This document shows, in pieces, positions 11,761 to 26,312 of a DNA stretch of 64,000 bases (positions within the stretch are counted from its first letter, which is position 1; each line of letters begins with the position of its first letter). The notes beneath the pieces were generated by a model. The model did no database searches and was not told where the DNA came from. It worked only from the letters and a program-made list of their open reading frames with translations. Origin of the DNA: Candidatus Magasanikiibacteriota bacterium (GTDB lineage: Bacteria; Patescibacteriota; Patescibacteriia; Magasanikbacterales; GWA2-37-8); NCBI GenBank assembly GCA_963802255.1, contig CAWDHY010000001.1:363842-427841 (forward strand). Reading direction: 5' to 3'. A program made the position numbers and the translations under genes.

Positions 11761-11789
11761 TTGACAAAATCGGTAAAATATGTTATATT
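11761..11789 (+). promoter_or_regulatory. Sigma70-type promoter: TTGACA - 17 nt - TATATT with extended -10 (TGt)
   Basis: Exact -35 hexamer and 17-nt spacer about 105 nt upstream of the FHA gene start; same architecture as the promoters at 18272, 18477 and 21647. Confidence 0.45.
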
Positions 11790-11893: not shown

Positions 11894-13648
11894 ATGGCAG
11901 AGGATAAGAAGACGAAAGCTCTCACTTCACGCGGGAAAACCGTGGATGGAGAGTCGTCCGGAACGAAGCCGACGGGCACTTTGATCAGTGAAGCCGAAGC
12001 TCAGGCGGTAAGGGGCAATACGATGCCGCCGCCGAAGCCCGATCCCAGCCGGTTCCCCAGCACAATCGCGGAGATATCCGGTGAGGAGTCGGCCGATGAA
12101 GCGGACGTTGTCCGTGGAACGGAAGAACTGGAAGTCGGAGAGGGCGTTCGGCCGGTACGGCCGGACGAGACCATGCGAACGCGAGTTTCGGGAATGATCA
12201 AGGACGCACTCGGCAAGCCCGAGGAGCCCGAGCCCGTTCCCGCCAAGATCATCAACACGTCAGCCGCTAGTTCGGATACGTGGTCCAGCGTCGGCATCGA
12301 GGGCGATGAAGCGGCGGAAGAGAATCCGCTGGCGGATTTGCCCGCGCCAGAAATGGCCGAAGGCGAAGTGGTTCAGGATGAAAGTCCTGAAGTCGCTGAG
12401 CCGGAAGTGGTTTCGGCTGATGCGAGCGTGGATGCGGAGGAGGCCTCCCCGGAGGAAACGAACGGGACGCCTCACCAGGCGAGTCCTTACGTGGAGCTTC
12501 GGATGATCGAGGGCGGAATCGTTCTCGAGGGTCCTGCGGTGGAAGTGGGTGATGAGCTCATCATCGGCCGTGACAAGGGTTGCGGCATGGTGATCGAGTC
12601 GCGCTACATCTCCCGGCATCATGCGGTGATCACCAAGTCGAAGGATGGCGACAAGTTCGTCATCATCGATCTCGGGTCCAAGCAGAAAACGTTCGTCAAC
12701 GACTTCGTCGTGGAACGCGACAAGGAATTCGAAATCGCGCACGGAGATACCATCCGGTTTGGCCGGGCGGACTGCGGCGCCGAGCTCGTCTTTCACGATC
12801 CGATGGTTCAGAAAGCAGATGTGGTGGCGGATGCCACCGTCATGAACCCCGACACCGACAGCCAGCCGGCCGATTCCGTTTCTGCGGATGAGCCGGAGAA
12901 GGAGGAAGATGTGACGAAAGCGGAACAGCACGCTGAGACGCTCAGCATCGACACGGGCCCGCTCCAGGGTGCCGTCGACAGCGGAGGAAAGGATGGCGAG
13001 AAGCCCGACGCAGACGCGACGGTCGTACCGCCCGACTTGCCTCCGCCGCCCGCCGACATGAAGAAGGCAGATACCAAGGGCGACAAGAAGAAGCCCGCCG
13101 GCGCGAAGAGCGCCTCCGGTGGCGGAACGCCGCCGCGTCTCCCGCCCTCGACTCAGAACTACAGCAAGGTGCTCTCGTCGGTTTTCATCGTTCTCATGCT
13201 CATGGTGGTCTTCGTCTTCGGCGCTATCCTCGTCGTTCGCGAGGTGATACCGGGCATTACCGGTTTCTTCGCAGAAACGGCAACGGTCGTCCCCATAGCG
13301 CCGCCCGCACAGGTGGCGAAGACGTCGGCAACCCAGCTGGCCAGCACTCCGGTGCAGGGTGAGCTGGCCGACCAGGTGGTACTCGCGGTTCAGGTGCCGG
13401 AGTTTGCGGACCTCAGAAAGATCCAGCTACCCGATGCATATGTTCCGCCTGCCAAATCGCCGATCAAGGATTTCGCGAGAGGGGTAGTCCTCCCCAAGTC
13501 ATTTGAGGACTGCTTCCCCAAGAACGCCACACTCGAAGCGGCGGAAGTGGCCTGGTGTTGCTCCTTCTTGCATCCGAATGCGGGTGACCTGGATGAACTG
13601 ATCAGGATGTCCGACTGCATGATCAAGCTCGAGCAGATGCAATATTAA
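11894..13648 (+). CDS. FHA-domain membrane protein (N-terminal acidic/Pro-rich region, FHA domain, one TM, C-terminal Cys-containing extracytoplasmic tail)
   Basis: LIIGRDKGCGMVIESRYISRHHAVI...DLGSKQKTFVNDFVV...HGDTIRFG is a canonical FHA core (GR...SRxH...N.T.vN). TM segment VLSSVFIVLMLMVVFVFGAILVV. GC-rich codon usage (first gene of the island). Confidence 0.65.
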   Translation: MAEDKKTKALTSRGKTVDGESSGTKPTGTLISEAEAQAVRGNTMPPPKPDPSRFPSTIAEISGEESADEADVVRGTEELEVGEGVRPVRPDETMRTRVSGMIKDALGKPEEPEPVPAKIINTSAASSDTWSSVGIEGDEAAEENPLADLPAPEMAEGEVVQDESPEVAEPEVVSADASVDAEEASPEETNGTPHQASPYVELRMIEGGIVLEGPAVEVGDELIIGRDKGCGMVIESRYISRHHAVITKSKDGDKFVIIDLGSKQKTFVNDFVVERDKEFEIAHGDTIRFGRADCGAELVFHDPMVQKADVVADATVMNPDTDSQPADSVSADEPEKEEDVTKAEQHAETLSIDTGPLQGAVDSGGKDGEKPDADATVVPPDLPPPPADMKKADTKGDKKKPAGAKSASGGGTPPRLPPSTQNYSKVLSSVFIVLMLMVVFVFGAILVVREVIPGITGFFAETATVVPIAPPAQVAKTSATQLASTPVQGELADQVVLAVQVPEFADLRKIQLPDAYVPPAKSPIKDFARGVVLPKSFEDCFPKNATLEAAEVAWCCSFLHPNAGDLDELIRMSDCMIKLEQMQY

Positions 13649-13666
13649 TTTTTGCCTACCATTTCA

Positions 13667-13692
13667 GGGAAGCAACAGTCCTGTTGCTTCCC
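13667..13692 (+). other. Perfect 11-12-bp stem-loop GGGAAGCAACAG/CTGTTGCTTCCC directly after the FHA gene (no U-tract)
   Basis: Inverted repeat read directly; followed downstream by a second long inverted repeat ACGGGTGTT...AACACCCGT plus T8 ending at about 13854. Confidence 0.4.
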
Positions 13693-13914
13693 ATTCCCAT
13701 CGGATGCCTGTGTTAACGGACATCCCGAGGAATAATATTTTTTGCACTTTATCGCAATCACCTGGTTTTCACGGGTGTTGCAATAAAGTGCAACAAAACG
13801 CACCTTACAATATAACAAGCAAGGCAATTAGAAAAACACCCGTTTTTTTTCGAAGCAGAGGGTCCGTAACAAAACGCGCAGAGCGCGCGATAACGGAGAA
13901 AGGGAGAAATCAAG

Positions 13915-15384
13915 ATGAAGAGATTCTTCGTCAGTTTGTTCACGGCAGCGGCCATCATGTACTCGGTCGGCGTTTCCGCGCAGTCCGCGGTGGATGGTGA
14001 TTACGAGGTCCAAGATTGGATGACGGTGGATATCACCGAGTCCGATCCGGGCGCTCAGCAGAGCGCCACCAATCAGGCCGTATTCTTCGGTCTGCAGGAG
14101 GTGGCCGTTCATCTGAAGAGGCTCGAGAACAAGTGCACGTCACCCAATTCGGACGGCTGCACTGACGCGATCATCGCTGCCGAGAAAAAGGCCAGCGAGA
14201 TCGTGAAGACCCAGGGTCTCTCACCCAAACAGAAGCGCGCGGTCCGACGGATCGTCGATGAAGCCATCACGGCCGCGAACGTGGGCGACACCGAGGGTGT
14301 CAAGAAAATCCGCGAACAGCTCGCGGACCACGAACGGCGAATTGGCGATCTCGAGGGTGACGTTACGAAGCTCAAGAGCAAAGTGACAGCGATCGAGAGC
14401 GGTGGCACAGTGGTCATCTCTTCGGAAAGTGGTTCGTCGGTAGCGGATTCCATGGATACGCGGCGCAAGGCCGTAGTGGCGCAGTCCACGGCAGACGAGG
14501 CGTTGCGGGTGGCCAAAGAGGCCAAGACCGCAGCCGATGAAGCCAAGGCTGCCTCTGCCGGTGAAAATTCCGGTATTTCCAAGGAAGACTTCCAGATCGT
14601 CCGCGATGCCGCGGCTGACGCGCAAGCGCGAGCCGATCTGGCACAGCGTGCTGCCGAGGAAGCCAAGGAAGCGGCCGATAAGGCTCTCGCCGGTTCCGAC
14701 AACGCGAACGAGTCCGGTGATGCCGAGGCGCTCGCGGATGCCAACAGGCGTTCGGACGAGGCCCTGACACAGGCCAAGGAAGCTCTCGCCAAGGCGGAAG
14801 AGGCGCGCGAGAATTCCGATGGTCTTGCCGATCAGATCGCGGCGCTCAAGACCGACATCGGCGCTTTGGAAGCCAAGCTCGATAAGAAGCAGGATGCCAA
14901 CGAGGTGGAGGCCGGTCTCGGCTATTTCACCACCGGCAAGATTTTCGCCCCAACCGTAGGTGTTACCTACACCGTGCGGCGCGGAGATATCCGGCTGGCG
15001 ATTGGCGCTGACTTCGGCTACCACTTCTTCTACGACAACATCGAGTACGAGCCCGAGATCAGAATCCTGTTCAACAGCTACTTCCGGCTCGGATACCAGT
15101 TCGTGGATTGGTTCTCCGCAGGCATCGGCGCATTTTCCTACAGCGCCGGCCAGCCCTATTCCGACACTTTCGGTTTCGGAGCAGAGTTGAGCGCCCGGTT
15201 CAACTGGATGCTCACGGACGCTCTCGGAATGGCCGTGGAGCTCTGGGGAGGACCCACCTACGAGTGGCAGAAGGTCACTAATCCGGAACCGCCGGATGTC
15301 GGTGCCAATGAGATCTACAAAAGCACTGACCAAAAAGGCGGTGCTTCCGGCGCCGGAGGCCTCCGGTTGACCCTCACGTTCTAA
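13915..15384 (+). CDS. Secreted protein: signal peptide, Ala-rich coiled-coil stalk, C-terminal beta-rich domain ending in an OMP-like beta-signal (…GLRLTLTF)
   Basis: MKRFFVSLFTAAAIMYSVGVSAQS signal peptide. Heptad-like AKEAKTAADEAKAAS...AEEAKEAADKALAG region. The C-terminal 160 aa has alternating aromatic/hydrophobic beta-strand patterns and a terminal Phe. RBS GGAGAAAGGGAG upstream. Confidence 0.6.
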   Translation: MKRFFVSLFTAAAIMYSVGVSAQSAVDGDYEVQDWMTVDITESDPGAQQSATNQAVFFGLQEVAVHLKRLENKCTSPNSDGCTDAIIAAEKKASEIVKTQGLSPKQKRAVRRIVDEAITAANVGDTEGVKKIREQLADHERRIGDLEGDVTKLKSKVTAIESGGTVVISSESGSSVADSMDTRRKAVVAQSTADEALRVAKEAKTAADEAKAASAGENSGISKEDFQIVRDAAADAQARADLAQRAAEEAKEAADKALAGSDNANESGDAEALADANRRSDEALTQAKEALAKAEEARENSDGLADQIAALKTDIGALEAKLDKKQDANEVEAGLGYFTTGKIFAPTVGVTYTVRRGDIRLAIGADFGYHFFYDNIEYEPEIRILFNSYFRLGYQFVDWFSAGIGAFSYSAGQPYSDTFGFGAELSARFNWMLTDALGMAVELWGGPTYEWQKVTNPEPPDVGANEIYKSTDQKGGASGAGGLRLTLTF

Positions 15385-15410
15385 GTTCTTTCCTGCCTTT
15401 GTTTGTTCTT

Positions 15411-15438
15411 GGGGCGAATGCGTTCTGCATATCGCCCC
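15411..15438 (+). terminator. Hairpin GGGGCGAatgcgttctgcaTATCGCCCC after gene 13915-15384
   Basis: 8-bp GC stem 27 nt after the stop; only a weak T-run follows. Confidence 0.35.
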
Positions 15439-15628
15439 CTCTATTTTGCCAATTATTATTTGTTGGCAGAATAGGGGATACACTTTGGCCCTTTCGCATT
15501 TTTATGCGATAATACCAAAGAAAGAAATATAATCTGTTCATTACAACTGACTGATAGTAAATAAGACAGCCGATGATGGCTGTTTCAACACAGAAATTTC
15601 GGGCAAAGACCCGAGAAAGGAACATAAA

Positions 15629-17272
<1,644 letters not shown>

Positions 17273-17310
17273 TCTTATCAGTTAGTTAAGTTCTTTCCGT
17301 TTGTTCTTTT

Positions 17311-17341
17311 GCGGCCGCGTGTTCTCACGCGGCCGCTTTTT
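17311..17341 (+). terminator. Rho-independent terminator GCGGCCGCGtgttctcaCGCGGCCGC + TTTTT
   Basis: 9-bp GC stem then U-tract, 38 nt after the stop of gene 15629-17272. Confidence 0.6.
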
Positions 17342-17365
17342 ATTTTATTTTAAAAATTTTTTTAA

Positions 17366-17397
17366 TAAAAAAACACCGAGCCAGATTGGCTCGGTGT
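17366..17397 (-). terminator. Rho-independent terminator for the minus-strand gene (CACCGAGCC-aatct-GGCTCGGTG + U7 on the minus strand)
   Basis: Plus strand shows aaaaaaaCACCGAGCCagattGGCTCGGTG, 22 nt downstream of the 17420 stop. Confidence 0.55.
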
Positions 17398-17419
17398 GGG
17401 ATGTGCGGAAGAGCAAGGG

Positions 17420-18079
17420 TTAAAGAGCGGAGAGAGCGGCGGGGGGAAGTGGACGGTAGAGGCTGTACATCCGGAGGAGGCATTCGTTCCGATACGGAAC
17501 AGGCAGTGCCTCGCAGCAGGGTTGCACGTTCTCTCGGCACAACACCGGACCGCCGGAAAAGCAGATGTCGGAAGGGTTCGGCGTGATGGCCGGAGGAGCT
17601 GTGAGCGTCGGCGGCTCCTTGTCCGTCACGTCTTCTCCGCGGTTGGCCACGGAGTAGGCGATCCAGCCGGCCAGCAGCAGGAGGATGATGATGACGATGA
17701 TCCATCCGATGGGGATGTCCCTCACCGGGCGGTGCGGCGGCGTCTGCTCGGCCTGCTCACGGAGTCGGGCGTTCAGCGCCGCTTCCTCGGCGACACGTCG
17801 CGCTTCGGCCTCTTCGCGGAGGCGAGCGTTCTGAGCCGATTCTTCTGCTGCGCGTCGCGTGCGTTCGACTTCCTCGGCCGCCAAGCGCGCTTTCTCGCGC
17901 TCGACGCTTTCGTCCACCATCTTGATGCCTTTGTCCACGACCTTCATCGCGGCCGCGAACATCTTCGCGCCGTAGTCATCCACGCTTTTCGCCGTCTTGG
18001 CACCCGGCTTCTGCTGATCGCCAGTCTTGCCATGGCCTCCGCCTTGCTGAGAGCCGTTCTGATTATTGTCGTTTGCCAT
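17420..18079 (-). CDS. Membrane protein: Gly/Gln-rich N-terminus, AEEA/ARLRE-repeat coiled coil, one TM, short Cys-rich C-terminal tail
   Basis: Start MANDNNQ at 18079 with GGAG 7 nt upstream; TM IGWIIVIIILLLLAGWIAY; C-terminal ...DICFSGGPVLCRENVQPCCEALPVPYRNECLL. The annotated ORF-track start at 18163 is probably too long. Confidence 0.55.
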   Translation of the reverse strand: MANDNNQNGSQQGGGHGKTGDQQKPGAKTAKSVDDYGAKMFAAAMKVVDKGIKMVDESVEREKARLAAEEVERTRRAAEESAQNARLREEAEARRVAEEAALNARLREQAEQTPPHRPVRDIPIGWIIVIIILLLLAGWIAYSVANRGEDVTDKEPPTLTAPPAITPNPSDICFSGGPVLCRENVQPCCEALPVPYRNECLLRMYSLYRPLPPAALSAL

Positions 18080-18213
18080 TTGCAAATCTCCTTTTTTGGA
18101 ATGGCTTCTCGCCGGTTTTTTAGTTTGGTTGTCAATGGTGCTGCCAAAAAATGACAGTATCAATAAATAATCAAATTAAATATTTAAAATATATTGATCT
18201 AAATTAACTAATC

Positions 18214-18242
18214 ATCTTAGCACATTTATTGGAGTATGTCAA
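18214..18242 (-). promoter_or_regulatory. Candidate divergent promoter for gene 17420-18079 (minus strand TTGACA - 17 - TAAGAT, with aaatgtgc extended -10 context)
   Basis: Minus-strand reading gcccaTTGACAtactccaataaatgtgcTAAGAT; shares the aaatgtgc-TAnAnT context with the plus-strand promoters. Confidence 0.3.
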
Positions 18243-18271
18243 TGGGCTAATTGGCCATTTTGGTAGGGGGC

Positions 18272-18300
18272 TTGACAAAATCATACAAATGTGGTATACT
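18272..18300 (+). promoter_or_regulatory. Sigma70 promoter TTGACA - 17 nt - TATACT, extended -10 (TGg)
   Basis: cTTGACAaaatcatacaaatgtggTATACT; perfect -35, 17-nt spacer, 5/6 -10. Confidence 0.55.
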
Positions 18301-18306
18301 ATCCCT

Positions 18307-18430
18307 TGTAAGTGAAAAATATAAGTTTTTGGCCTGCGTTTGAGAGAGGCGCCTGTCAAAAACAACCTAAATATGCCTAATTATATCAAGGCATAATACC
18401 CGAAAACTCTCTCAAAAGGAGAGGTTTTTT
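18307..18430 (+). ncRNA. Candidate short transcript or leader from promoter 18272, ending at an intrinsic terminator (CUCUC-aaaag-GAGAG + U6) just before the second promoter
   Basis: tGAGAGAGg (18341-18349) can pair with CTCTCTCA (18407-18414); the same CUCUC can instead pair with GGAGAGG (18418-18424) followed by TTTTTT (18425-18430). Internal ATGCCT/AGGCAT hairpin. No ORF. Confidence 0.3.
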
Positions 18431-18476
18431 CTTTAAAATAAGGCAAAATTGTTCAATAGTTGAGTCTTTAATGGTG

Positions 18477-18505
18477 TTGACAAAATTGCTTAAATGTGCT
18501 ATACT
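18477..18505 (+). promoter_or_regulatory. Sigma70 promoter TTGACA - 17 nt - TATACT, extended -10 (TGc)
   Basis: gTTGACAaaattgcttaaatgtgcTATACT, about 170 nt upstream of the start at 18676. Confidence 0.55.
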
Positions 18506-18675
18506 TATACGTTAAGATAAATTTTCCTTTACTTTGCGCCTATCTTTCAAGAGCGGGTGCAGACTGAGGGAAATTTCCTTAGAAAAGCTCTTTTCATATA
18601 GAAAGAAGTTGAAAGAAACAGCGGCCGTGAGTCGGCCATAACAAGCCGCACTGCGGCGCAATATTGGAGGATCCG

Positions 18676-19714
18676 ATGAAAAACGTCATCGTGACCGTGT
18701 TCGTAGTGCACTGCGCCATGTTCGTTTCGGCGAACGCCCTCGCGCAGTACAATGGCGCTAGCCCCGCCGGCCCGCTCATCGTGGACAACTTGTCCGCCAT
18801 GCAGGCGGCCGGCCGGTGCGTCTCGCAGATCCAGACGGTCTGCAACGGCTACTGGAACGCCCCCGGGTGTTCGCAGGCCGTGATCGACTGCGACAAGGTA
18901 CGCTCCGGTGCCAAGAAGGCGGCCACCGGCCTGACCAAGAAGCAGGTCATCGCCATCGTTGAAGACGCAATCAAGGGTCTCGCCAGCAAGGCGGATCTCG
19001 ATGCTCTCGCGAAGCGTGTGGCCGCGCTCGAGGATGGTCTGGCCAAGGAAGCTGCGGCACGCGCCGCTGCCGATGAGGCACTCCAGGCGGATATCGACGA
19101 GCATAAGGCCGCGGAGTGTCACGACGGCGAACGGCGCTGCACGGACGAAAATACGCCGGCGGTTTGTACGGACGGTAAGTACGTCGACCAGCCAGACTGC
19201 GGCGAGGACACCTTCTGCAACGACGGGCTTTGTATGGAAGAAGCCTTGGGACGAGGACATCAACGCCCTGAAGGATGAAGTCATGTTCGAGATCGGCGCT
19301 ACGTTCTTCGGCGCTCCTCACCTTCAGGCGATCGGTGCCGCGGCTGGTTTGCAGCTGCGGATTGCCGACAACATCGCGGTGGTGGGAGACCTCGGGCTCG
19401 GCTACGCCTTCGACAAGGATGTGGCCGTGATCGCGAGTGGTGGTGTTGTCTTCTACGTGACCGAGAAGTTCGGTCTCGGACCCGTCGCACTCTTCGGCAA
19501 GGAGAGTTTTGATGACGAAGGTGACGTCGAAGTTGGTGGAGGTGTGGAGCTTCGGTTCCGTACCGGCACCGGTTTCTTCGTCTCTGGAACCATCGGCCTC
19601 GGCGCTGAGGGAGTGCTTCAGAAGATCGGCACGCGTCCTGACGGCGAGAAGCTGACCGACCGCGAGTGGGGCCTGGCCGTCATGGGCGGGCTCATGATCG
19701 GCGGCGAGTTCTAA
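18676..19714 (+). CDS. Paralog of 13915-15384 (signal peptide, Cys/coiled-coil region, C-terminal beta-rich domain ending ...GGLMIGGEF), interrupted by a +1 frameshift near 19233-19247
   Basis: GGAGG RBS + ATG at 18676, signal peptide MKNVIVTVFVVHCAMFVSANALAQ. Frame 1 runs to 19278 (…FCNDGLCMEEALGRGHQRPEG*). The overlapping +1 frame (ORF 18959-19714) continues …WDEDINALKDEVMFEIGATFFG…, homologous to the C-terminal domain of 13915-15384. Either a pseudogene or a sequence error. Confidence 0.5.
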
Positions 19715-19948
19715 CCAACCAGTTCTTTCCTTTCTATATAAGGTCGGCGCGATTCTGCGCCGGCCTCCCAACTCTTGCGTACAAAATTTGTTCGCAGAAG
19801 TTGGGACCAAAGTTCTCATATAAAAATTGGGAACGACGGAGCACCCATTAAAATAGCTCTTTGAAATATTATTAGGAACTTAAAAGTTTAGAAACGCAAC
19901 GAACGAAACACATCCCGACACGTCGGGATTGACAAAAAGGAGATACCG

Positions 19949-21415
19949 ATGAAGACCATCGCTATGATTCTCTGGGTTGCTCTGGTCGTGATCGCGGCGA
20001 GCGCGTGTGGTGTGGAGGCGGGCGACGGTGACTTCACCGCGACCGCGGACACCGACAGCGACACCGACTCCGACACGGATTCGGACAGCGATTCGGACAC
20101 CGACAGCGACACCGACTCCGACACGGATTCGGACAGCGATTCGGACACCGACAGCGACACCGACTCCGACACGGACGAGTGTACGGATGGCGAGGTCGGG
20201 TGCACCGACGACGACTCCTTCCACATCTGCGTGGATGGTCAGTGGTCGGCGGAACTCGATTGCGCCGGCGACCTCGTCTGCGAAGACGGTGAGTGTGTCG
20301 ATCCGGGTTCGGACTGCGAGGACGGCGAGAGTGAGTGCACCGACGACGATTCGTACCACGTGTGCGTCGGCGGCAGCTGGTCGGCAACGATTGACTGTGC
20401 CGATGGCTACGAGTGTGCGGAAGGTCAGTGCGAGCTCGTTCAGATCTGCGATCCCGGTGACGAGCGCTGCTACGGCGGAAACGCCCAGCAGTGCAACAGC
20501 GCCGGAACGGCTTGGGCCACCATCGATTTCTGCGCCTCCGATGAGGAGTGCGTGGTGGTGGGTGGCGAGGCTGAGTGCGTCGCGGACACGATTTGCACCC
20601 CCTACGACGAGCGCTGCTACGGCGGAAACGCCCAGCAGTGCAACAGCGCCGGAACGGCTTGGGCTGTCATCGACTACTGCGCCTCCGATGAGGACTGCGT
20701 GGTGGTGAGCGGTGAGGCCGAGTGCGTGTCCGATTCTATCTGCACCCCCTACGACGAGCGCTGCTACGGCGGAAACGCCCAGCAGTGCAACAGCGCCGGA
20801 ACAGCTTGGGTCACCATCGACACCTGCGGCTCCGACGAGGAGTGCGAGATGGTGGGTGACGAAGCCGAGTGTCACGAGTGCGGCGCATTCAACAGCTATG
20901 ACTGTCCCAGCGGGGAAACCTGCGAAGAGGGACAGTGCGTAGGCGGCGATGACGACGAGTGCATCGTCGGCGACCCGGCACATCAGTGCGACGAAGGGTA
21001 CGCCTGTGTGGATGGCGAGTGTGTGGAGGCCGACTGCACGGGCGCGACTGATTGTCCGACAGGGCAGGTCTGCCACATCCTCGGAACGCGCTTCGAGACC
21101 GTGGGTAGCGAGATCTACGGGTACAAGATCGACGGCGTTTGCGCTTCGGCCCCGTCCGGTACCGCCGAGTGTTGGGACAGGGACTGGGACGGCAGCGCCC
21201 TGACGATCGGCGGAGTGTGTGAGCTGTTCTACAGCGAGTACTCCCCGGACGTCTGGTACTCCTACCAGAGCACCCCGCACTGCCAGGGTTCGTCCTGGCA
21301 CAACCCGATCCCAGAATGCTGTATCCGGGACAGTATGGACAAGTGCGTCAAGCATACGGTTTCCACCGGCTTGGGCACGATCATGTCCAGCTCCTGGATC
21401 GCCCGCGTTATCTAG
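19949..21415 (+). CDS. Lipoprotein, (S/T)D-repeat Cys-rich family member 2 (488 aa)
   Basis: Signal/lipobox VVIAASACG; SD/TD tract; three near-identical about 40-aa Cys modules (CxPYDERCYGGNAQQCNSAGTAWAxIDxCASDEECVVVxGEAECV); C-terminal ECWDRDWDGSALTIGGVC...IPECC domain shared with family. Confidence 0.65.
   Translation: MKTIAMILWVALVVIAASACGVEAGDGDFTATADTDSDTDSDTDSDSDSDTDSDTDSDTDSDSDSDTDSDTDSDTDECTDGEVGCTDDDSFHICVDGQWSAELDCAGDLVCEDGECVDPGSDCEDGESECTDDDSYHVCVGGSWSATIDCADGYECAEGQCELVQICDPGDERCYGGNAQQCNSAGTAWATIDFCASDEECVVVGGEAECVADTICTPYDERCYGGNAQQCNSAGTAWAVIDYCASDEDCVVVSGEAECVSDSICTPYDERCYGGNAQQCNSAGTAWVTIDTCGSDEECEMVGDEAECHECGAFNSYDCPSGETCEEGQCVGGDDDECIVGDPAHQCDEGYACVDGECVEADCTGATDCPTGQVCHILGTRFETVGSEIYGYKIDGVCASAPSGTAECWDRDWDGSALTIGGVCELFYSEYSPDVWYSYQSTPHCQGSSWHNPIPECCIRDSMDKCVKHTVSTGLGTIMSSSWIARVI
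20048..20170 (+). repeat. 48-nt tandem repeat about 2.5 copies (SD/TD dipeptide tract)
   Basis: gacaccgacagcgacaccgactccgacacggattcggacagcgattcg repeated. Confidence 0.75.
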
Positions 21416-21646
21416 TAGTTCCTACCTTGTTCTTTCAGGTCGACGGCGCCTTTAAAGCCGTCAATTCATATGAGATGATCTGTCTCTCGGATAATCTCAG
21501 ATGAATCAAAGAATCCGGGCCTTGTGCCGGGATTTTTTGTTTTTGATGATTACATGGTTTTGCTGTCACAAACACACCTCTTTATGCGTAATATCTAATG
21601 TAATATCAGTGGTTTTTGACATTTTTGTGGATAATCATATAAACAC

Positions 21647-21675
21647 TTGACAACAGAGCCAAAAAGTGTTAATAT
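21647..21675 (+). promoter_or_regulatory. Sigma70 promoter TTGACA - 17 nt - TAATAT, extended -10 (TGt)
   Basis: cTTGACAacagagccaaaaagtgtTAATAT about 300 nt upstream of gene 21973. Confidence 0.5.
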
Positions 21676-21716
21676 TTAGTGTTACAATTTATGTGTATTT
21701 CAAGCTGATTAGCAAT

Positions 21717-21775
21717 TGAGAGAGGTGGCTAATTTTGGCGAAATACAGCGCAAAACCTCTCTCGGCGAGGTTTTT
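21717..21775 (+). promoter_or_regulatory. Conserved leader element: GAGAGAGG ... CCUCUCUC hairpin followed by a short GC stem and U-run (attenuator-like)
   Basis: tGAGAGAGG (21717-21725) is perfectly complementary to CCTCTCTC (21756-21763), followed by ggcgaggTTTTTgttaTTTTT; same GA/CU motif pair as in leader 18341-18424. Confidence 0.35.
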
Positions 21776-21972
21776 GTTATTTTTATTGGCGTCAATATTT
21801 TCATGCTAAATTTTTTGGCTTGAAACAGGGACGCTTCCCCTGGCCGTACTCGCTTATGCGTAATTCGGCTTGAAGCTAAATATAATAGTACCTTGAAAAT
21901 TGAAGGGAACAAAAATAAACAATCGCGATTGGAATCGCGACAAACAGAATCGAAGGAAAAGAGGAGGAAAAG

Positions 21973-24723
21973 ATGAGAAAGTATTTGGTCTGGTTTGCGA
22001 TCGTCCTGTCTGCGACCGGATGTATCTCGCCGAACATGGGGGGAAACGGAGACGAGTACAAGTTCGGCAGTGACACGGACACGGACACGGACACCGACAC
22101 GGACACCGACACGGACACCGACACGGACACCGACACGGACACCGACACGGACACCGACACGGACACCGACACGGACACCGACACGGACACCGACACGGAC
22201 ACCGACACGGACACCGACACGGACACCGACACGGACACCGACACGGACACCGACACGGACACCGACACGGACACCGACACGGACACCGACACGGACACCG
22301 ACACGGACACCGACACGGACACCGACACTGGTGACGGTGGCCCGGATGGTGGAGACACTGATTCGGGCGTTGACTGCATCAGCGGGCCGTGTTGCAACGC
22401 GGGCGGATTCTTCCAACCCGAAGGATACCCTTGCGCTTCGTTCGCCGAGTATCAATGCAATGGGACTCTTTGCGGAGCCGACGCTCAGTCGCGCTCAGTG
22501 ACGCAGTTCTGCTCGGGCGAAAGTTTCGAGTGCGACGGCGATACGTTCGAGACGGTCTGGGCGACAATCCAGAACTGTTCAGACTCCGACGTCTGCAACA
22601 CCGATATGGTTTCTTATGCCGAGTGCGCCGAGTGCGACCTTGGTTGTGAAGATGTCGGTGGAATCGGCGACTGTCTTTTGGAGTGCGATCCTGCCGACGA
22701 ATGCTGCGGATCCGATGGTCTCTTCGAGATCGTGGGCACCCTTTGTGGTGATTCATCCGACAGCGTGTGCGACGGAGCGGATACTTGCGACGGCGCCGGT
22801 GTGTGCCTCGAGAATATCGAGCCAGACACGACTGAATGCCACGCATCTGCCGGAGATTGCGACATCACGGAATTCTGTGATGGCGCTGGCGCTTGTCCTA
22901 CCGATACGTTCGAAGCGGCGCTTATTGAGTGCCGTCCTTCCGCTGGTGTTTGCGATATCGCTGAGTACTGTACCGGCGATTCGCCGGCTTGTCCTTCCGA
23001 TGAGGTGGAGTTCACGAGTTTGCCCTGCGACAGCTGGGCAGAATATCAGTGCTTCGCCGGAACCGGAGATGGATGCGGAGCTGACGCTCAAGCGCGTTGG
23101 GCTACGCAGTACTGTGGCGGTGGGGTTTCGTGCGATGGCAGTATCTTCAGTACCGCCTGGATGACTATCCAGAATTGCGGTGATGATGATATTTGTTTCA
23201 CCGATACCTTCTCCTACGCCGAGTGTGAGGTCTGTGATGTCGGCTGTACGGATGGTGAATGTGATGATCTGCCTGACGGCGGCGCTGACACCGACACCGA
23301 CACCGACACGGATACGGATACGGACACGGACACGGATACCGACACGGATACCGACACGGATACGGATACCGACACGGATACCGACACGGATACCGATACC
23401 GACACCGATACGGATACCGATACGGACACGGACACGGATACGGATACCGATACCGACACGGATACCGACACGGATACCGATACGGACACGGATACCGACA
23501 CGGATACCGATACGGATACCGATACGGATACCGATACGGATACCGATACCGATACCGATACGGATACCGATACTGGGGACTGCGTCCCTGGCGATATGTG
23601 CTGTGATCTCGCCGGCAATTTCGAGCCGGCCGGTACGTCCTGCGGTGACACCACTGCTTCGACCTGCGACAACCCCGACACCTGTGATGGTGGCGGCAAC
23701 TGCGAGTCGAACTACGAGCCGACTACCACTGTTTGCCGCCCGGCGGCAGACATCTGCGACGTGGATGATTTCTGCAATGGTGCAGGACTCTGCGATCCGG
23801 ACGAGGTGGAGCTCGAGTTCGTGGAGTGCCGAGGTTCTCTCGGTGCTTGCGACGCGGTGGATTACTGCGATGGTATCACCACATCGTGTGATGACGGACT
23901 GCTCTTCGGCGATGTCTGCCACGCTTCGGCCGGCGACTGTGATCCCGAGGAGACCTGCGACGGTGCGTTGCCGGATTGTCCGGTCGACACGCTCGAGCCA
24001 GACACCACGGTATGCCGTGCGGAAACCGGTGACTGCGACAACGCCGAGACCTGTACCGGTAGCTCTGCTACCTGTCCGGCCGACACGTTCAAGTCGCCGT
24101 CTACCATCTGCGATACCTCCTACGAGTTCAGATGCAATGGCTCGCTCTGCGGGTCCGATGCTCAGCGCAGACTGGTTCGCCAGTACTGTGACGGCACCGG
24201 TGCCGCCTGTGACGGGTCCATCTACTACAACAGCTGGTTGACGATCGAAAACTGCGACGCTTCCTCTGTTTGCATCGCGACTCCCATTTCTGCTACCTGC
24301 GACGTTTGCGGTTACGAGTGTCAGAACATTCCTGACGGTACCTGCGTCGGCGAAGAGGACGAACCCTGTGCTGAGCCTCCTTTCGAGGAGTGCGATGACG
24401 GGCTCGTCTGCACCGAAGGTATCTGCGGTACCGAACCCGATGGCGGGACGGACGGCGGAATCGACGGCGGCGCTGACACCGACACCGGATACCGATACGG
24501 ACACCGACACGGATACGGATACGGATACCGACACGGATACGGACACCGACACGGACACCGACACGGACACCGATACCGACACGGACACGGACACCGACAC
24601 GGATACCGACACGGATACGGATACCGATACGGATACCGATACGGACACCGATACGGATACCGATACGGATACCGATACGGATACCGATACGGATACCGAT
24701 ACTGGGGACTGCGTCCCTGGTGA
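21973..24723 (+). CDS. Lipoprotein family member 3, segment A of a 4.2-kb gene (real frame ends at a +1 frameshift about 24487; the ORF tail to 24723 is an out-of-frame read of the repeat as GYRYGHRHG...)
   Basis: Lipobox LSATGC followed by [16 protein letters not shown] (same post-Cys motif as 15629). About 42 consecutive TD dipeptides, Cys-rich modules (CRxxxGxCDxxExCxGxxxxCPxD), second TD tract, first copy of the 909-bp block. Confidence 0.6.
22093..22326 (+). repeat. Perfect 12-nt tandem repeat (gacaccgacacg) x about 19.5, encoding (TD)n
   Basis: Exact head-to-tail copies over about 234 nt, read directly from the sequence. Confidence 0.9.
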
Positions 24724-25609
24724 TACGTGCTGTGATCTCGCCGGCAATTTCGAGCCGGCCGGTACGTCCTGCGGTGACACCACTGTTTCGACCTGCGACA
24801 ACCCCGACACCTGTGATGGTGGCGGCAACTGCGAGTCGAACTACGAGCCGACTACCACTGTTTGCCGCCCGGCGGCAGACATCTGCGACGTGGATGATTT
24901 CTGCAATGGTGCAGGACTCTGCGATCCGGACGAGGTGGAGCTCGAGTTCGTGGAGTGCCGAGGTTCTCTCGGTGCTTGCGACGCGGTGGATTACTGCGAT
25001 GGTATCACCACATCGTGTGATGACGGACTGCTCTTCGGCGATGTCTGCCACGCTTCGGCCGGCGACTGTGATCCCGAGGAGACCTGCGACGGTGCGTTGC
25101 CGGATTGTCCGGTCGACACGCTCGAGCCAGACACCACGGTATGCCGTGCGGAAACCGGTGACTGCGACAACGCCGAGACCTGTACCGGTAGCTCTGCTAC
25201 CTGTCCGGCCGACACGTTCAAGTCGCCGTCTACCATCTGCGATACCTCCTACGAGTTCAGATGCAATGGCTCGCTCTGCGGGTCCGATGCTCAGCGCAGA
25301 CTGGTTCGCCAGTACTGTGACGGCACCGGTGCCGCCTGTGACGGGTCCATCTACTACAACAGCTGGTTGACGATCGAAAACTGCGACGCTTCCTCTGTTT
25401 GCATCGCGACTCCCATTTCTGCTACCTGCGACGTTTGCGGTTACGAGTGTCAGAACATTCCTGACGGTACCTGCGTCGGCGAAGAGGACGAACCCTGTGC
25501 TGAGCCTCCTTTCGAGGAGTGCGATGACGGGCTCGTCTGCACCGAAGGTATCTGCGGTACCGAACCCGATGGCGGGACGGACGGCGGAATCGACGGCGGC
25601 GCTGACACC
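23572..25609 (+). repeat. Tandem direct duplication: two 909-bp near-identical copies (23572-24480 and 24701-25609) separated by a 220-bp TD-repeat tract (period 1129 bp)
   Basis: Copies align base for base from actggggactgcgtccctgg... to ...cgacggcggcgctgacacc. Only a few substitutions are visible (ggcgatatg vs ggtgatacg; actgcttcg vs actgtttcg). The antisense ORFs 23862-24107 and 24991-25236 are identical. Confidence 0.85.
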
Positions 25610-25765
25610 GATACGGATACCGATACGGATACGCGACACGGACACGGATACCGACACGGATACGGACACCGACACGGATACCGACACGGATACCGACACG
25701 GATACGGATACCGATACGGATACCGACACGGATACGGATACCGAACTCTGGGAGTGTGTGTCTGA
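24368..25765 (+). CDS. Segment B of the same gene (real coding about 24487-25634 in this frame; second copy of the Cys-rich block). The ORF-track N-terminus MLSLLS... is an out-of-frame artefact.
   Basis: The frame carries PDTDTDTD... then [25 protein letters not shown]... identical to segment A residues, then [11 protein letters not shown] followed by an RHGHGY out-of-frame repeat read after a second +1 shift near 25634. Confidence 0.5.
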   Translation: MLSLLSRSAMTGSSAPKVSAVPNPMAGRTAESTAALTPTPDTDTDTDTDTDTDTDTDTDTDTDTDTDTDTDTDTDTDTDTDTDTDTDTDTDTDTDTDTDTDTDTDTDTDTDTGDCVPGDTCCDLAGNFEPAGTSCGDTTVSTCDNPDTCDGGGNCESNYEPTTTVCRPAADICDVDDFCNGAGLCDPDEVELEFVECRGSLGACDAVDYCDGITTSCDDGLLFGDVCHASAGDCDPEETCDGALPDCPVDTLEPDTTVCRAETGDCDNAETCTGSSATCPADTFKSPSTICDTSYEFRCNGSLCGSDAQRRLVRQYCDGTGAACDGSIYYNSWLTIENCDASSVCIATPISATCDVCGYECQNIPDGTCVGEEDEPCAEPPFEECDDGLVCTEGICGTEPDGGTDGGIDGGADTDTDTDTDTRHGHGYRHGYGHRHGYRHGYRHGYGYRYGYRHGYGYRTLGVCV

Positions 25766-26213
25766 CACTGACTGCACTGATCCGGCTTTGCCCATCTGCT
25801 CACAGTTCCACATCTGCGTGGAGTGTGAGTACGGCGAAGACTGTTTCGTCGATGAAGGGTGTGGCAAGGAATCGTTCACCTGCGAACCCATTCCGAAGCC
25901 CGCAGTGGGTGAGTATCTGTTCTGTTGGGACCTCGATCCCGACGGCGACCCCCTCACTATCAACAGTACTTGTGATGACTTCGACGTCGTTGATGGCTGT
26001 GACTACTGGGGGCCGGTGCCCTGGCAGTACGAGGAAGGCGTAGGTATGCCGATTTGTGGCAGCTGCGATTGGGTCGTCGATCACTGTGAGGCGTGTGCCG
26101 AACAGGAACCCATTCCGGAGTGTTGCCTCAGCAATCAGTGGAACTTCTTTGAGCTGGATCCTGTGGAGCGGATTTGTCTGACGCAGGGACTGCTCATTGA
26201 ATTCATTCCATAG
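25497..26213 (+). CDS. Segment C of the same gene (real coding about 25634-26213: TD tract plus conserved C-terminal domain FCWDLDPDGDPLTINSTC...IPECC)
   Basis: Frame carries (TD)n then ELWECVSDTDCTD... and the family C-terminal domain; stop at 26211-26213. Confidence 0.55.
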   Translation: MLSLLSRSAMTGSSAPKVSAVPNPMAGRTAESTAALTPIRIPIRIRDTDTDTDTDTDTDTDTDTDTDTDTDTDTDTDTDTDTELWECVSDTDCTDPALPICSQFHICVECEYGEDCFVDEGCGKESFTCEPIPKPAVGEYLFCWDLDPDGDPLTINSTCDDFDVVDGCDYWGPVPWQYEEGVGMPICGSCDWVVDHCEACAEQEPIPECCLSNQWNFFELDPVERICLTQGLLIEFIP

Positions 26214-26240
26214 ATAGTTCCCTCCAATCGTTCTTTTCTC

Positions 26241-26260: not shown

Positions 26261-26312
26261 AAATCACCATGAGATTATCATTACTCTCTCTTTGATGATC
26301 TCAGTTGATACG

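Follow-up and report, generated by a model that had tools for sequence, protein, structure and literature searches.

The window analysed here is a stretch of 64,000 nucleotides from a Candidatus Magasanikiibacteriota bacterium (contig CAWDHY010000001.1, positions 363,842 to 427,841 of the forward strand), and coordinates given without a locus label refer to it. It consists of chromosome of ~40% guanine plus cytosine (GC) carrying TypA, MurB, transketolase and tmRNA, and of an island of 57-64% GC at ~11.9-26.2 kb with AT-rich intergenic regions. Within the island, two plus-strand leaders, W1 (18307-18430, ~124 nt from the predicted start to the end of the U-run, a possible short transcript) and W2 (21682-21775, ~94 nt), share a GA-rich block, GAGAGAGG, and a downstream CU-rich block, and each ends in a predicted, weak intrinsic terminator. 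Comparison with copies in other genomes indicates that this element is a real, conserved and previously uncatalogued leader RNA of Magasanikiibacteriota-type bacteria of the Candidate Phyla Radiation (CPR).

Leader W1 starts at ~18307, as predicted from its consensus promoter at 18272-18300 (TTGACA, 17 nt, TGg TATACT). Its first hairpin, P1 (18325-18363; GUUUUUGGC..GCGUUU[GAGAG]AGGCGC..GUCAAAAAC), is the proposed anti-antiterminator and is supported by minimum free energy (MFE) folds, by a flank-shuffle test (z=-2.66) and by covariation across copies; it holds the GA block at 18342-18349. Folding places an extra hairpin in the linker (UAUGCCU..AGGCAUA, 18372-18395), which is missing in most other copies. 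The CU block CUCUCUC (18407-18413) can pair either with the GA block, over 10 bp including UUU:AAA flanks, or with 18419-18424, and the latter pairing forms the weak intrinsic terminator at 18407-18430, with a CUCUCU/GGAGAG stem and U6 (dG -10.5 kcal/mol). Leader W2 has the same parts: a consensus promoter at 21647-21675 (TTGACA, 17 nt, TGt TAATAT) with a predicted start at ~21682, a P1 at 21704-21739 (GCUGAUUAGC-A-AUU[GAGAGA]GGU-G-GCUAAUU-UU-GGC; MFE folds, covariation, flank-shuffle z=-2.40), the GA block at 21718-21725, the CU block CCUCUCUC at 21756-21763 and a weak intrinsic terminator at 21752-21775 (AAAACCUC/GAGGUUUU and a U-run; dG -8.2 kcal/mol), of which the stem needs CCUC only and the loop contains UCUC. 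It is followed by a 197-nt spacer with no promoter-like site and then by the ATG at 21973.

In the window, GAGAGAGG occurs only at these two places, its 8-nt complement at 21756-21763 and a 7-nt complement at 18407-18413. The composite pattern GAGAGAGG-N27-57-CTCTCTC-N2-9-GAGGTTT matches twice, precisely at both leaders, against 0.00 matches in shuffled sequence. The original prediction, that two leaders carry the same GA and CU segments and that the CU segment is shared between a GA:CU helix and a GAGG plus U-run terminator, is thereby upheld: both CU...GAGG plus T-run sites (18407-18424 and 21752-21774) were scored as terminator-like but weak, with 3 G-C pairs apiece, and the competing states are nearly isoenergetic at the decision point. 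Its scheme of two hairpins was incomplete, since there are three hairpins and P1 had been missed. Folding of the full predicted transcripts placed the GA block mainly in the apical loop and closing pairs of P1, not free.

Further copies were sought by pattern scans with one genome per species and, separately, in metagenomes; scans of whole collections used exact patterns. The scan of species genomes gave three true copies in two Candidatus Magasanikiibacteriota metagenome-assembled genomes (MAGs), at loci L002, L004 and L006, and a fourth, L001, in a MAG labelled Gammaproteobacteria. The copy in L004 (4048-4142) is the ortholog of W2, ahead of the same gene, with leader and 5' untranslated region (UTR) conserved between the two, which points to a related CPR genome as the origin of the window. 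The metagenome scan returned 40 matches, of which only L017, L021 and L037 have a consensus promoter and P1, the remainder being unrelated palindromic repeats or matches by chance. Scanning all consensus promoters in the loci brought up a second, diverged copy in L017 (L017b, beside L017a), and the copy in L055 was found through protein homologs of a CxxC family described below. The total is 11 copies in 8 sequence lineages, nine of them beyond the window, in Candidatus Magasanikiibacteriota MAGs and metagenome contigs, with W2/L004, L017a/L021 and L037/L055 as orthologous pairs. Of the nine extra copies, seven came from a pattern search that demanded both blocks and GAGGTTT; only L055 and L017b are independent of it.

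A covariance model (R1) built from the 11 copies recovers all of them (W1 as 18327-18432 with 66.9 bits) and was run over 325 kb. The only other match to outscore any of them is L041, a promoterless contig from the pattern scan that was judged to be chance, and the search of the 325 kb gave no convincing further copy, the best extras being L041 and an ordinary gene-end terminator in L006. Other routes were less productive. The element is absent from the unrelated contigs that encode homologs of the protein at 19949-21415, searching with the CxxC family gave near-identical proteins only and L055 as the single new copy, an exact look-up of an island protein returned no record, a tblastn search against plasmids and a scan of PHROGs gave nothing informative, and the sole match in a scan of viral contigs was an unrelated GAGAGGTTTCCTCTCTC repeat array. 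The latter contig (L028 and L054; Ga0315275_10000150 = IMGVR_UViG_3300032401_000014) carries tandem GAGAGGTTTCCTCTCTC-like inverted repeats unrelated to the leader. The pattern scan also caught JAAUYA contigs (L010, L020, L023, L026, L031, L032 and L033) with unrelated long near-perfect palindromes of the form ...CTC(T/A)(T/A)GAGAGAGGCAC...GTGCCTCTCTC(T/A)(T/A)GAGGTTT, which look like miniature inverted-repeat transposable elements (MITEs).

All copies share the same order of parts: the consensus promoter, ~14-47 nt, P1, a linker, (C)CUCUCUC, 3-7 nt, and (GA)GAGG followed by U4-7, for a leader length of ~85-135 nt. P1 has 6-13 bp, with stem sequences that are wholly different and a loop (U/A)GAGAGA(G). 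The linker is often U-rich and sometimes has its own hairpin, leaving ~5-40 nt from P1 to the CU block and 28-57 nt from the GA to the CU block. Conservation of sequence across the copies is limited to the two 8-mers, GAGAGAGG and CCUCUCUC, while the length of P1, the linker and the optional hairpins vary.

P1 is strongly supported by covariation and is the best-supported structure of the element. On a hand-made, N-padded alignment (A3), 83.7% of the P1 cells are paired versus 53.9+-3.5 in shuffles, none of 500 shuffles reaches the observed value, both sides have changed in 12 of the 14 pairs, and controls with slid partner columns give 31-47% pairing. Two points weigh against this result: the alignment was fitted by hand to the structure by means of bulge columns and shifts in register of one base, and RNAalifold, given the P1 alignment without gaps, found no pairs because of those same shifts and bulges. 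For this reason, an alignment-free test was added in which the flanks of the GA block were shuffled. P1 pairing was better than shuffled in all 11 copies, with z from -1.95 to -6.29 and a fraction of shuffles at least as good of 0.000-0.046. Given that many of its pairs are G-U, P1 works only as RNA of this strand.

The GA:CU helix is conserved to a degree that leaves little room for covariation. It is paired in 98.9% of cells, 6 of its 8 pairs are invariant, and one compensatory change from G-C to U-A is found, GAGAGAUG:CAUCUCUC in L017b. Conservation of the pairing in further copies, which the original prediction called for, is seen in nine more copies, and covariation of the GA:CU helix is limited to this single event. 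Several observations count against the helix and the terminator. Support for the former consists of conservation plus the one compensatory event, 44 of 500 shuffles are equally good, and the invariance of both blocks is partly a matter of ascertainment, the retrieval pattern having fixed them. The terminator stems are short, with a core of 4-7 bp, and a CCUCUC/GAGAGG-U terminator is found at an ordinary gene end of this lineage too (L006 1955-1925). In the two copies that are free of the retrieval bias, L055 has both blocks intact and L017b has the compensatory change. In W2, L004 and L006 the terminator needs CCUC only, yet the UCUC located in its loop is conserved while the neighbouring sequence has diverged, which gives an independent argument for the GA:CU helix.

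Terminator hairpins of -6.1 to -14.0 kcal/mol followed by U4-7 are present in all 11 copies, and the GA:CU duplexes reach -12.8 to -18.7 kcal/mol. When the transcript is ended directly behind the CU block, the MFE structure of 5 of the 11 copies contains the antiterminator, whose state in 10 of the 11 differs from the P1 state by no more than ~3.3 kcal/mol. In the full-length transcript the balance tips to P1 plus terminator, by 2.6-14.5 kcal/mol in all copies but L001. P1, the GA:CU helix and the terminator are mutually exclusive by sequence and energy. A static kissing loop between the loops of P1 and the terminator was rejected, given that the CU block is in the terminator stem in W1, L001, L037 and L055.

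The leader is always co-oriented with and upstream of an open reading frame (ORF) of 56-72% GC, in genomes of roughly 40-45% GC. The spacer from terminator to ORF is 24-245 nt (24 nt in L001), and ~1.1 kb in L021. This latter interval (minus strand), like the one in L017, is GC-rich (52-80%), with no convincing ORF and no Rfam match. With a promoter-like site defined as matching at least 9 of 12 consensus positions, none is found from the terminator to the start codon in 7 of the 9 copies checked, and expression of the downstream genes therefore most likely depends on read-through of the leader terminator, as judged from the sequence. The exceptions are L021, with two weak sites in its spacer, and W1, where a second consensus promoter 3' of the terminator (18477-18505, plus strand) drives the gene at 18676 independently of W1. 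The W1 case counts against a role of the leader as an attenuator, because there it is not needed to express the gene.

The genes behind the leader are heterogeneous. W2 and L004 precede Cys-rich TD-repeat secreted proteins with disintegrin-like repeats, W1 precedes a coiled-coil protein with a signal peptide, and L001 and L006 precede other secreted proteins. A small basic protein with the pattern CxxC...VP...KLGR...DLA.FAVC..C and a Lys/Ala-rich tail is found behind the leader in three independent loci (L002, L037/L055 and L021); one such CxxC protein has the NCBI locus tag NTW66_01210. The downstream proteins gave no useful Pfam or PHROG match, and the AlphaFold model of the CxxC protein has a mean confidence (pLDDT) of 58.7. 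The ribosome-binding site of the L021 CxxC gene is UUGAGAGAGGUGACCC-AUG, so that the GA block sequence doubles as a Shine-Dalgarno sequence there. In L037 (4767-4890, minus strand), the leader and a CxxC gene of 70% GC sit between a 5S rRNA gene and rpsL, a highly expressed neighbourhood.

The promoters of the leaders belong to a wider class. TTGACA-N17-TANNNT has 10 matches in the window versus 0.47 expected, and the four plus-strand promoters that had been singled out (11761, 18272, 18477 and 21647) indeed carry a TG separated by one base from the -10 and agree with the consensus at 10-11 of 12 positions; the extended consensus is TTGACAAAA...TGTGnTATAnT-N5-GTTA. The one at 11761-11789 (plus strand) is of the same type and serves the gene for an FHA-domain protein (11894-13648) with no GA/CU leader. 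The notion that this promoter grammar is a feature of the island did not hold. Since the same promoter is found at a minus-strand gene (18242->18214) and outside the island, ahead of tRNA-Asp at 2190->2162, TTGACA-17-TGn-extended -10 is the organism's general strong-promoter consensus and is not island-specific. The divergent minus-strand promoter (18214-18242), absent from the original prediction, belongs to the gene 18163..17420, whose terminator lies at 17397->17373. The region 17420-18163 has long ORFs on both strands, and this promoter and terminator show the minus-strand ORF to be the gene; its product resembles DotU weakly (E=0.003). Several leader promoters have, 10-17 nt before their -35, a palindrome TGGCTAA-NN-TTAGCCA (L001 3128-3143, L017 2046-2061, L006 5742-5757). 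It is perfect in L001 and L017 and weaker in L002 at 5158, and it has the look of an operator recognised by a dimeric DNA-binding protein.

The island genes have further features in common. GC-rich coding sequence (56-72%) is combined with native-looking promoters and UTRs, with intergenic regions of 39-42% and a flanking chromosome of ~40-45% (window 11894-26213), and the same cassette pattern is seen in L001, L002, L006, L021, L037 and L055, from several independent assemblies. The sequence GTTCTTTCC follows island stop codons by 0-17 nt and is in turn followed by a GC-rich hairpin (15385-15393, 17290-17298 and 19722-19730), with variants at 21429-21437 and 26230-26238; GTTCYTTYC has 6 matches versus 2.85 expected. 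This shared 3'-end motif resembles the complement of purine-rich ribosome-binding regions. Two 3'-UTR hairpins, at 21472-21498 and 26270-26303, have a CUCUC(UC) loop complementary to the GAGAGAG loop of P1; each follows one of two paralogous Cys-rich genes and has a terminator close behind it, and the L004 ortholog of the first (1700-1731) is identical. A short GC-rich hairpin with an A-rich run before it stands 5-15 nt ahead of the Shine-Dalgarno sequence of every island gene (13875-13889, 15599-15614, 18622-18657, 19912-19929 and 21922-21941), and the terminator scan scores these hairpins as terminator-like on the minus strand. An apparent frameshift near 19245 splits one gene at 18676-19714, and 21973-26213 has several frameshifts within TD-repeat (ACNGAY) tracts; the large Cys-rich gene there also contains a direct duplication of 1129 bp (23664->24793). 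Assembly errors, pseudogenes or phase variation through repeat length could account for these features.

Taken together, we lean towards reading the element as a factor-dependent, lineage-specific transcription attenuator with three competing hairpins and PyrR-like logic, a model that we hold to be somewhat more probable than its negation. In this model, P1 would be the first to form, with GAGAGA as part of its apical loop and the final G(G) of GAGAGAGG within the closing pairs, and the variable, often U-rich linker and the invariant CCUCUCUC would follow. The CU block could then form the antiterminator of 8-10 bp with the GA block, which would need the top of P1 to be opened, or the weak terminator hairpin with the following GAGG before the U-run. 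After synthesis of the CU block the two states would be nearly isoenergetic, and once the 3' arm of the terminator is present P1 plus terminator would be favoured, making termination the default. A sequence-specific trans factor reading the GA loop of P1, as PyrR does on its anti-antiterminator, would be the most likely trigger, because only two 8-mers are conserved and there is no pocket-like core. Such a factor could either stabilise P1, repressing as PyrR does, or open it, and read-through would lead to transcription of the downstream GC-rich gene. The sequence comparison and folding show the parts, their order and conservation, the covariation of P1 and the mutual exclusivity of the states, and from these we infer termination and read-through, the existence of the factor and the direction of regulation. 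A terminator/antiterminator switch consistent across the copies is plausible. Of the earlier suggestion of an attenuator or riboswitch-like switch, the cis attenuator fits, with 11 copies of which most precede genes lacking a promoter of their own, but a riboswitch-like switch is unlikely.

The closest known system is PyrR attenuation, and by its logic the leader would be classed as a protein-dependent attenuator that is a member of no catalogued family tested: Rfam gave no match for the element at gathering or permissive thresholds, and no prior description of it was found in the literature. PyrR binds anti-antiterminator hairpins, with the consensus ARUCCAGAGAGGYU in the terminal loop and upper stem (PMC7430163). 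The leader has a purine motif with an AGAGAGG core in the same position of its anti-antiterminator. Like the PyrR attenuators of Bacillus and other Firmicutes pyr operons (RF00515), it has three mutually exclusive hairpins and multiple copies per genome, and in PyrR systems the gene of the regulator itself has a copy in front of it. Unlike PyrR sites, its motif is (U/A)GAGAGAGG with freely varying closing pairs, it precedes GC-rich genes for secreted or CxxC proteins and not pyrimidine genes, and no PyrR homolog was found in the DNA examined (the window and the copy loci).

Other regulatory leaders resemble it in part. As in an intrinsic-terminator attenuator, a hairpin and U-run stand between promoter and gene in 11/11 copies, and as in generic terminator/antiterminator leaders and riboswitch platforms, the element is promoter-proximal, the 5' arm of its terminator can pair upstream, and the alternatives are nearly isoenergetic at the decision point. 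It differs from these in having no leader peptide, T-box sequence or conserved aptamer core. In the pyrG attenuator of Bacillus subtilis, a purine-rich 5' segment pairs with the CU-rich 5' arm of the terminator and prevents termination, and this purine tract arises from reiterative, CTP-sensitive incorporation of G where the transcript begins. The GA block, in contrast, is templated and is found in a hairpin loop, 14-47 nt after the predicted start. Three candidates of this kind were rejected: a T-box leader (no Rfam T-box match, no T-box sequence and a length of only 85-135 nt), pairing with the anticodon of tRNA-Glu(CUC) (UUGAGAG in some copies only and no T-box sequence), and a leader-peptide attenuator (inspection of the 11 sequences by eye showed neither a conserved ORF nor a start codon at a constant distance from the GA block).

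Short RNAs released by premature termination in 5' leaders are known as riboswitch- or attenuator-derived small RNAs (sRNAs), and W1 would likewise release a ~124-nt RNA ending at the terminator, between two promoters. The chief competitor of the attenuator model takes this further and holds the element to be a stand-alone sRNA gene, with the exposed GAGAGAG loop working in trans, as a seed or as a sponge that binds protein, and read-through as incidental. We consider this unlikely, if well short of negligible. In its favour, the thermodynamic ground state of 10 of the 11 copies is P1 plus terminator, W1 is followed by a second consensus promoter, and complementary CUCUC(UC) is found in the loops of the island 3'-UTR hairpins 21472-21498 (identical in L004) and 26270-26303. 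Nonetheless, the stretch after the terminator is devoid of promoter-like sites for 7 of the 9 downstream genes, the next gene is always close by and in the same orientation, a pure seed model leaves the conservation of the full CU block in the same RNA unexplained, and the terminators are weak, unlike typical sRNA terminators. Most copies, unlike attenuator-derived sRNAs, look cis-acting. W1 is the only copy with a second consensus promoter following; its own promoter and terminator with independent downstream transcription (18477) fit an sRNA gene, unlike the 7 of 9. The sRNA explanation is most plausible here, and a ~120-nt sRNA is possible.

The likeness to PyrR could also be literal, with a PyrR/uracil phosphoribosyltransferase homolog binding the P1 loop together with uridine mono- or triphosphate (UMP/UTP), enforcing termination and making the expression of surface proteins depend on pyrimidine supply. 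This explanation is invited by the shared three-hairpin logic and by an AGAGAGG core at the corresponding position, and AGUC-AG-AGAGAGG-CU in L006 is the PyrR consensus with one C replaced by AG. The Rfam PyrR model, however, has no match even at E<=10 (window 18200-22000; L006 5590-5700), matches to the consensus are not above chance (8 vs 8.9 expected, the best match in the window having 3 mismatches), the copies differ freely at the ARUC and YU positions, no pyr-related domain was seen in the products of the downstream genes, and the phosphoribosyltransferase motif was not found in the loci examined. A genuine PyrR site is for these reasons quite improbable. We give still less credence to a small-molecule riboswitch with P1 and the linker as its aptamer. 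The promoter-proximal position and an expression platform of terminator and antiterminator agree with it, whereas the absence of conserved nucleotides beyond the two 8-mers, a P1 of 6-13 bp, a linker conserved in neither length nor secondary structure, the absence of a match to an Rfam family and the functionally heterogeneous downstream genes do not. That the element has no RNA function at all, being a chance low-complexity inverted repeat or a DNA repeat (MITE, terminal inverted repeats), is hardly credible: similar GA/CT inverted repeats do occur as unrelated palindromic families in metagenomes (JAAUYA contigs), but chance predicts 0.00 occurrences of the composite pattern in the window, all true copies have promoter, orientation and gene context in common, the P1 stems covary with G-U pairs valid on one strand only, and the internal sequence is unconserved, unlike in a mobile element; a MITE or DNA repeat was rejected on the P1 covariation and the flank-shuffle test.

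The attenuator model can be carried further. The palindromic site, the promoter and the GA/CU leader might together form a dedicated cassette placed before high-GC, apparently foreign genes for surface or secreted proteins, a lineage-specific taming of acquired genes in which the CxxC protein with the Lys/Ala-rich tail (L002, L037/L055 and L021) would bind the GA loop and autoregulate as PyrR does. This extension is speculative, and we regard it as doubtful.

To our knowledge, next to nothing is known of how Patescibacteria (CPR) regulate their genes, and we know of no CPR-specific cis-regulatory RNA in Rfam. Against this scant background, the element is short, recurrent and easily recognised. 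It identifies a regulon whose genes have strong promoters and anomalous GC content and encode secreted Cys-rich/TD-repeat proteins and small CxxC proteins, and these may be surface factors for the contact of an episymbiont with its host. If the attenuator model is true, the leader would provide a testable handle on gene switching in CPR bacteria and a natural regulatory part for the CPR genetic tools in development, and its GA loop would serve as bait for the regulator.

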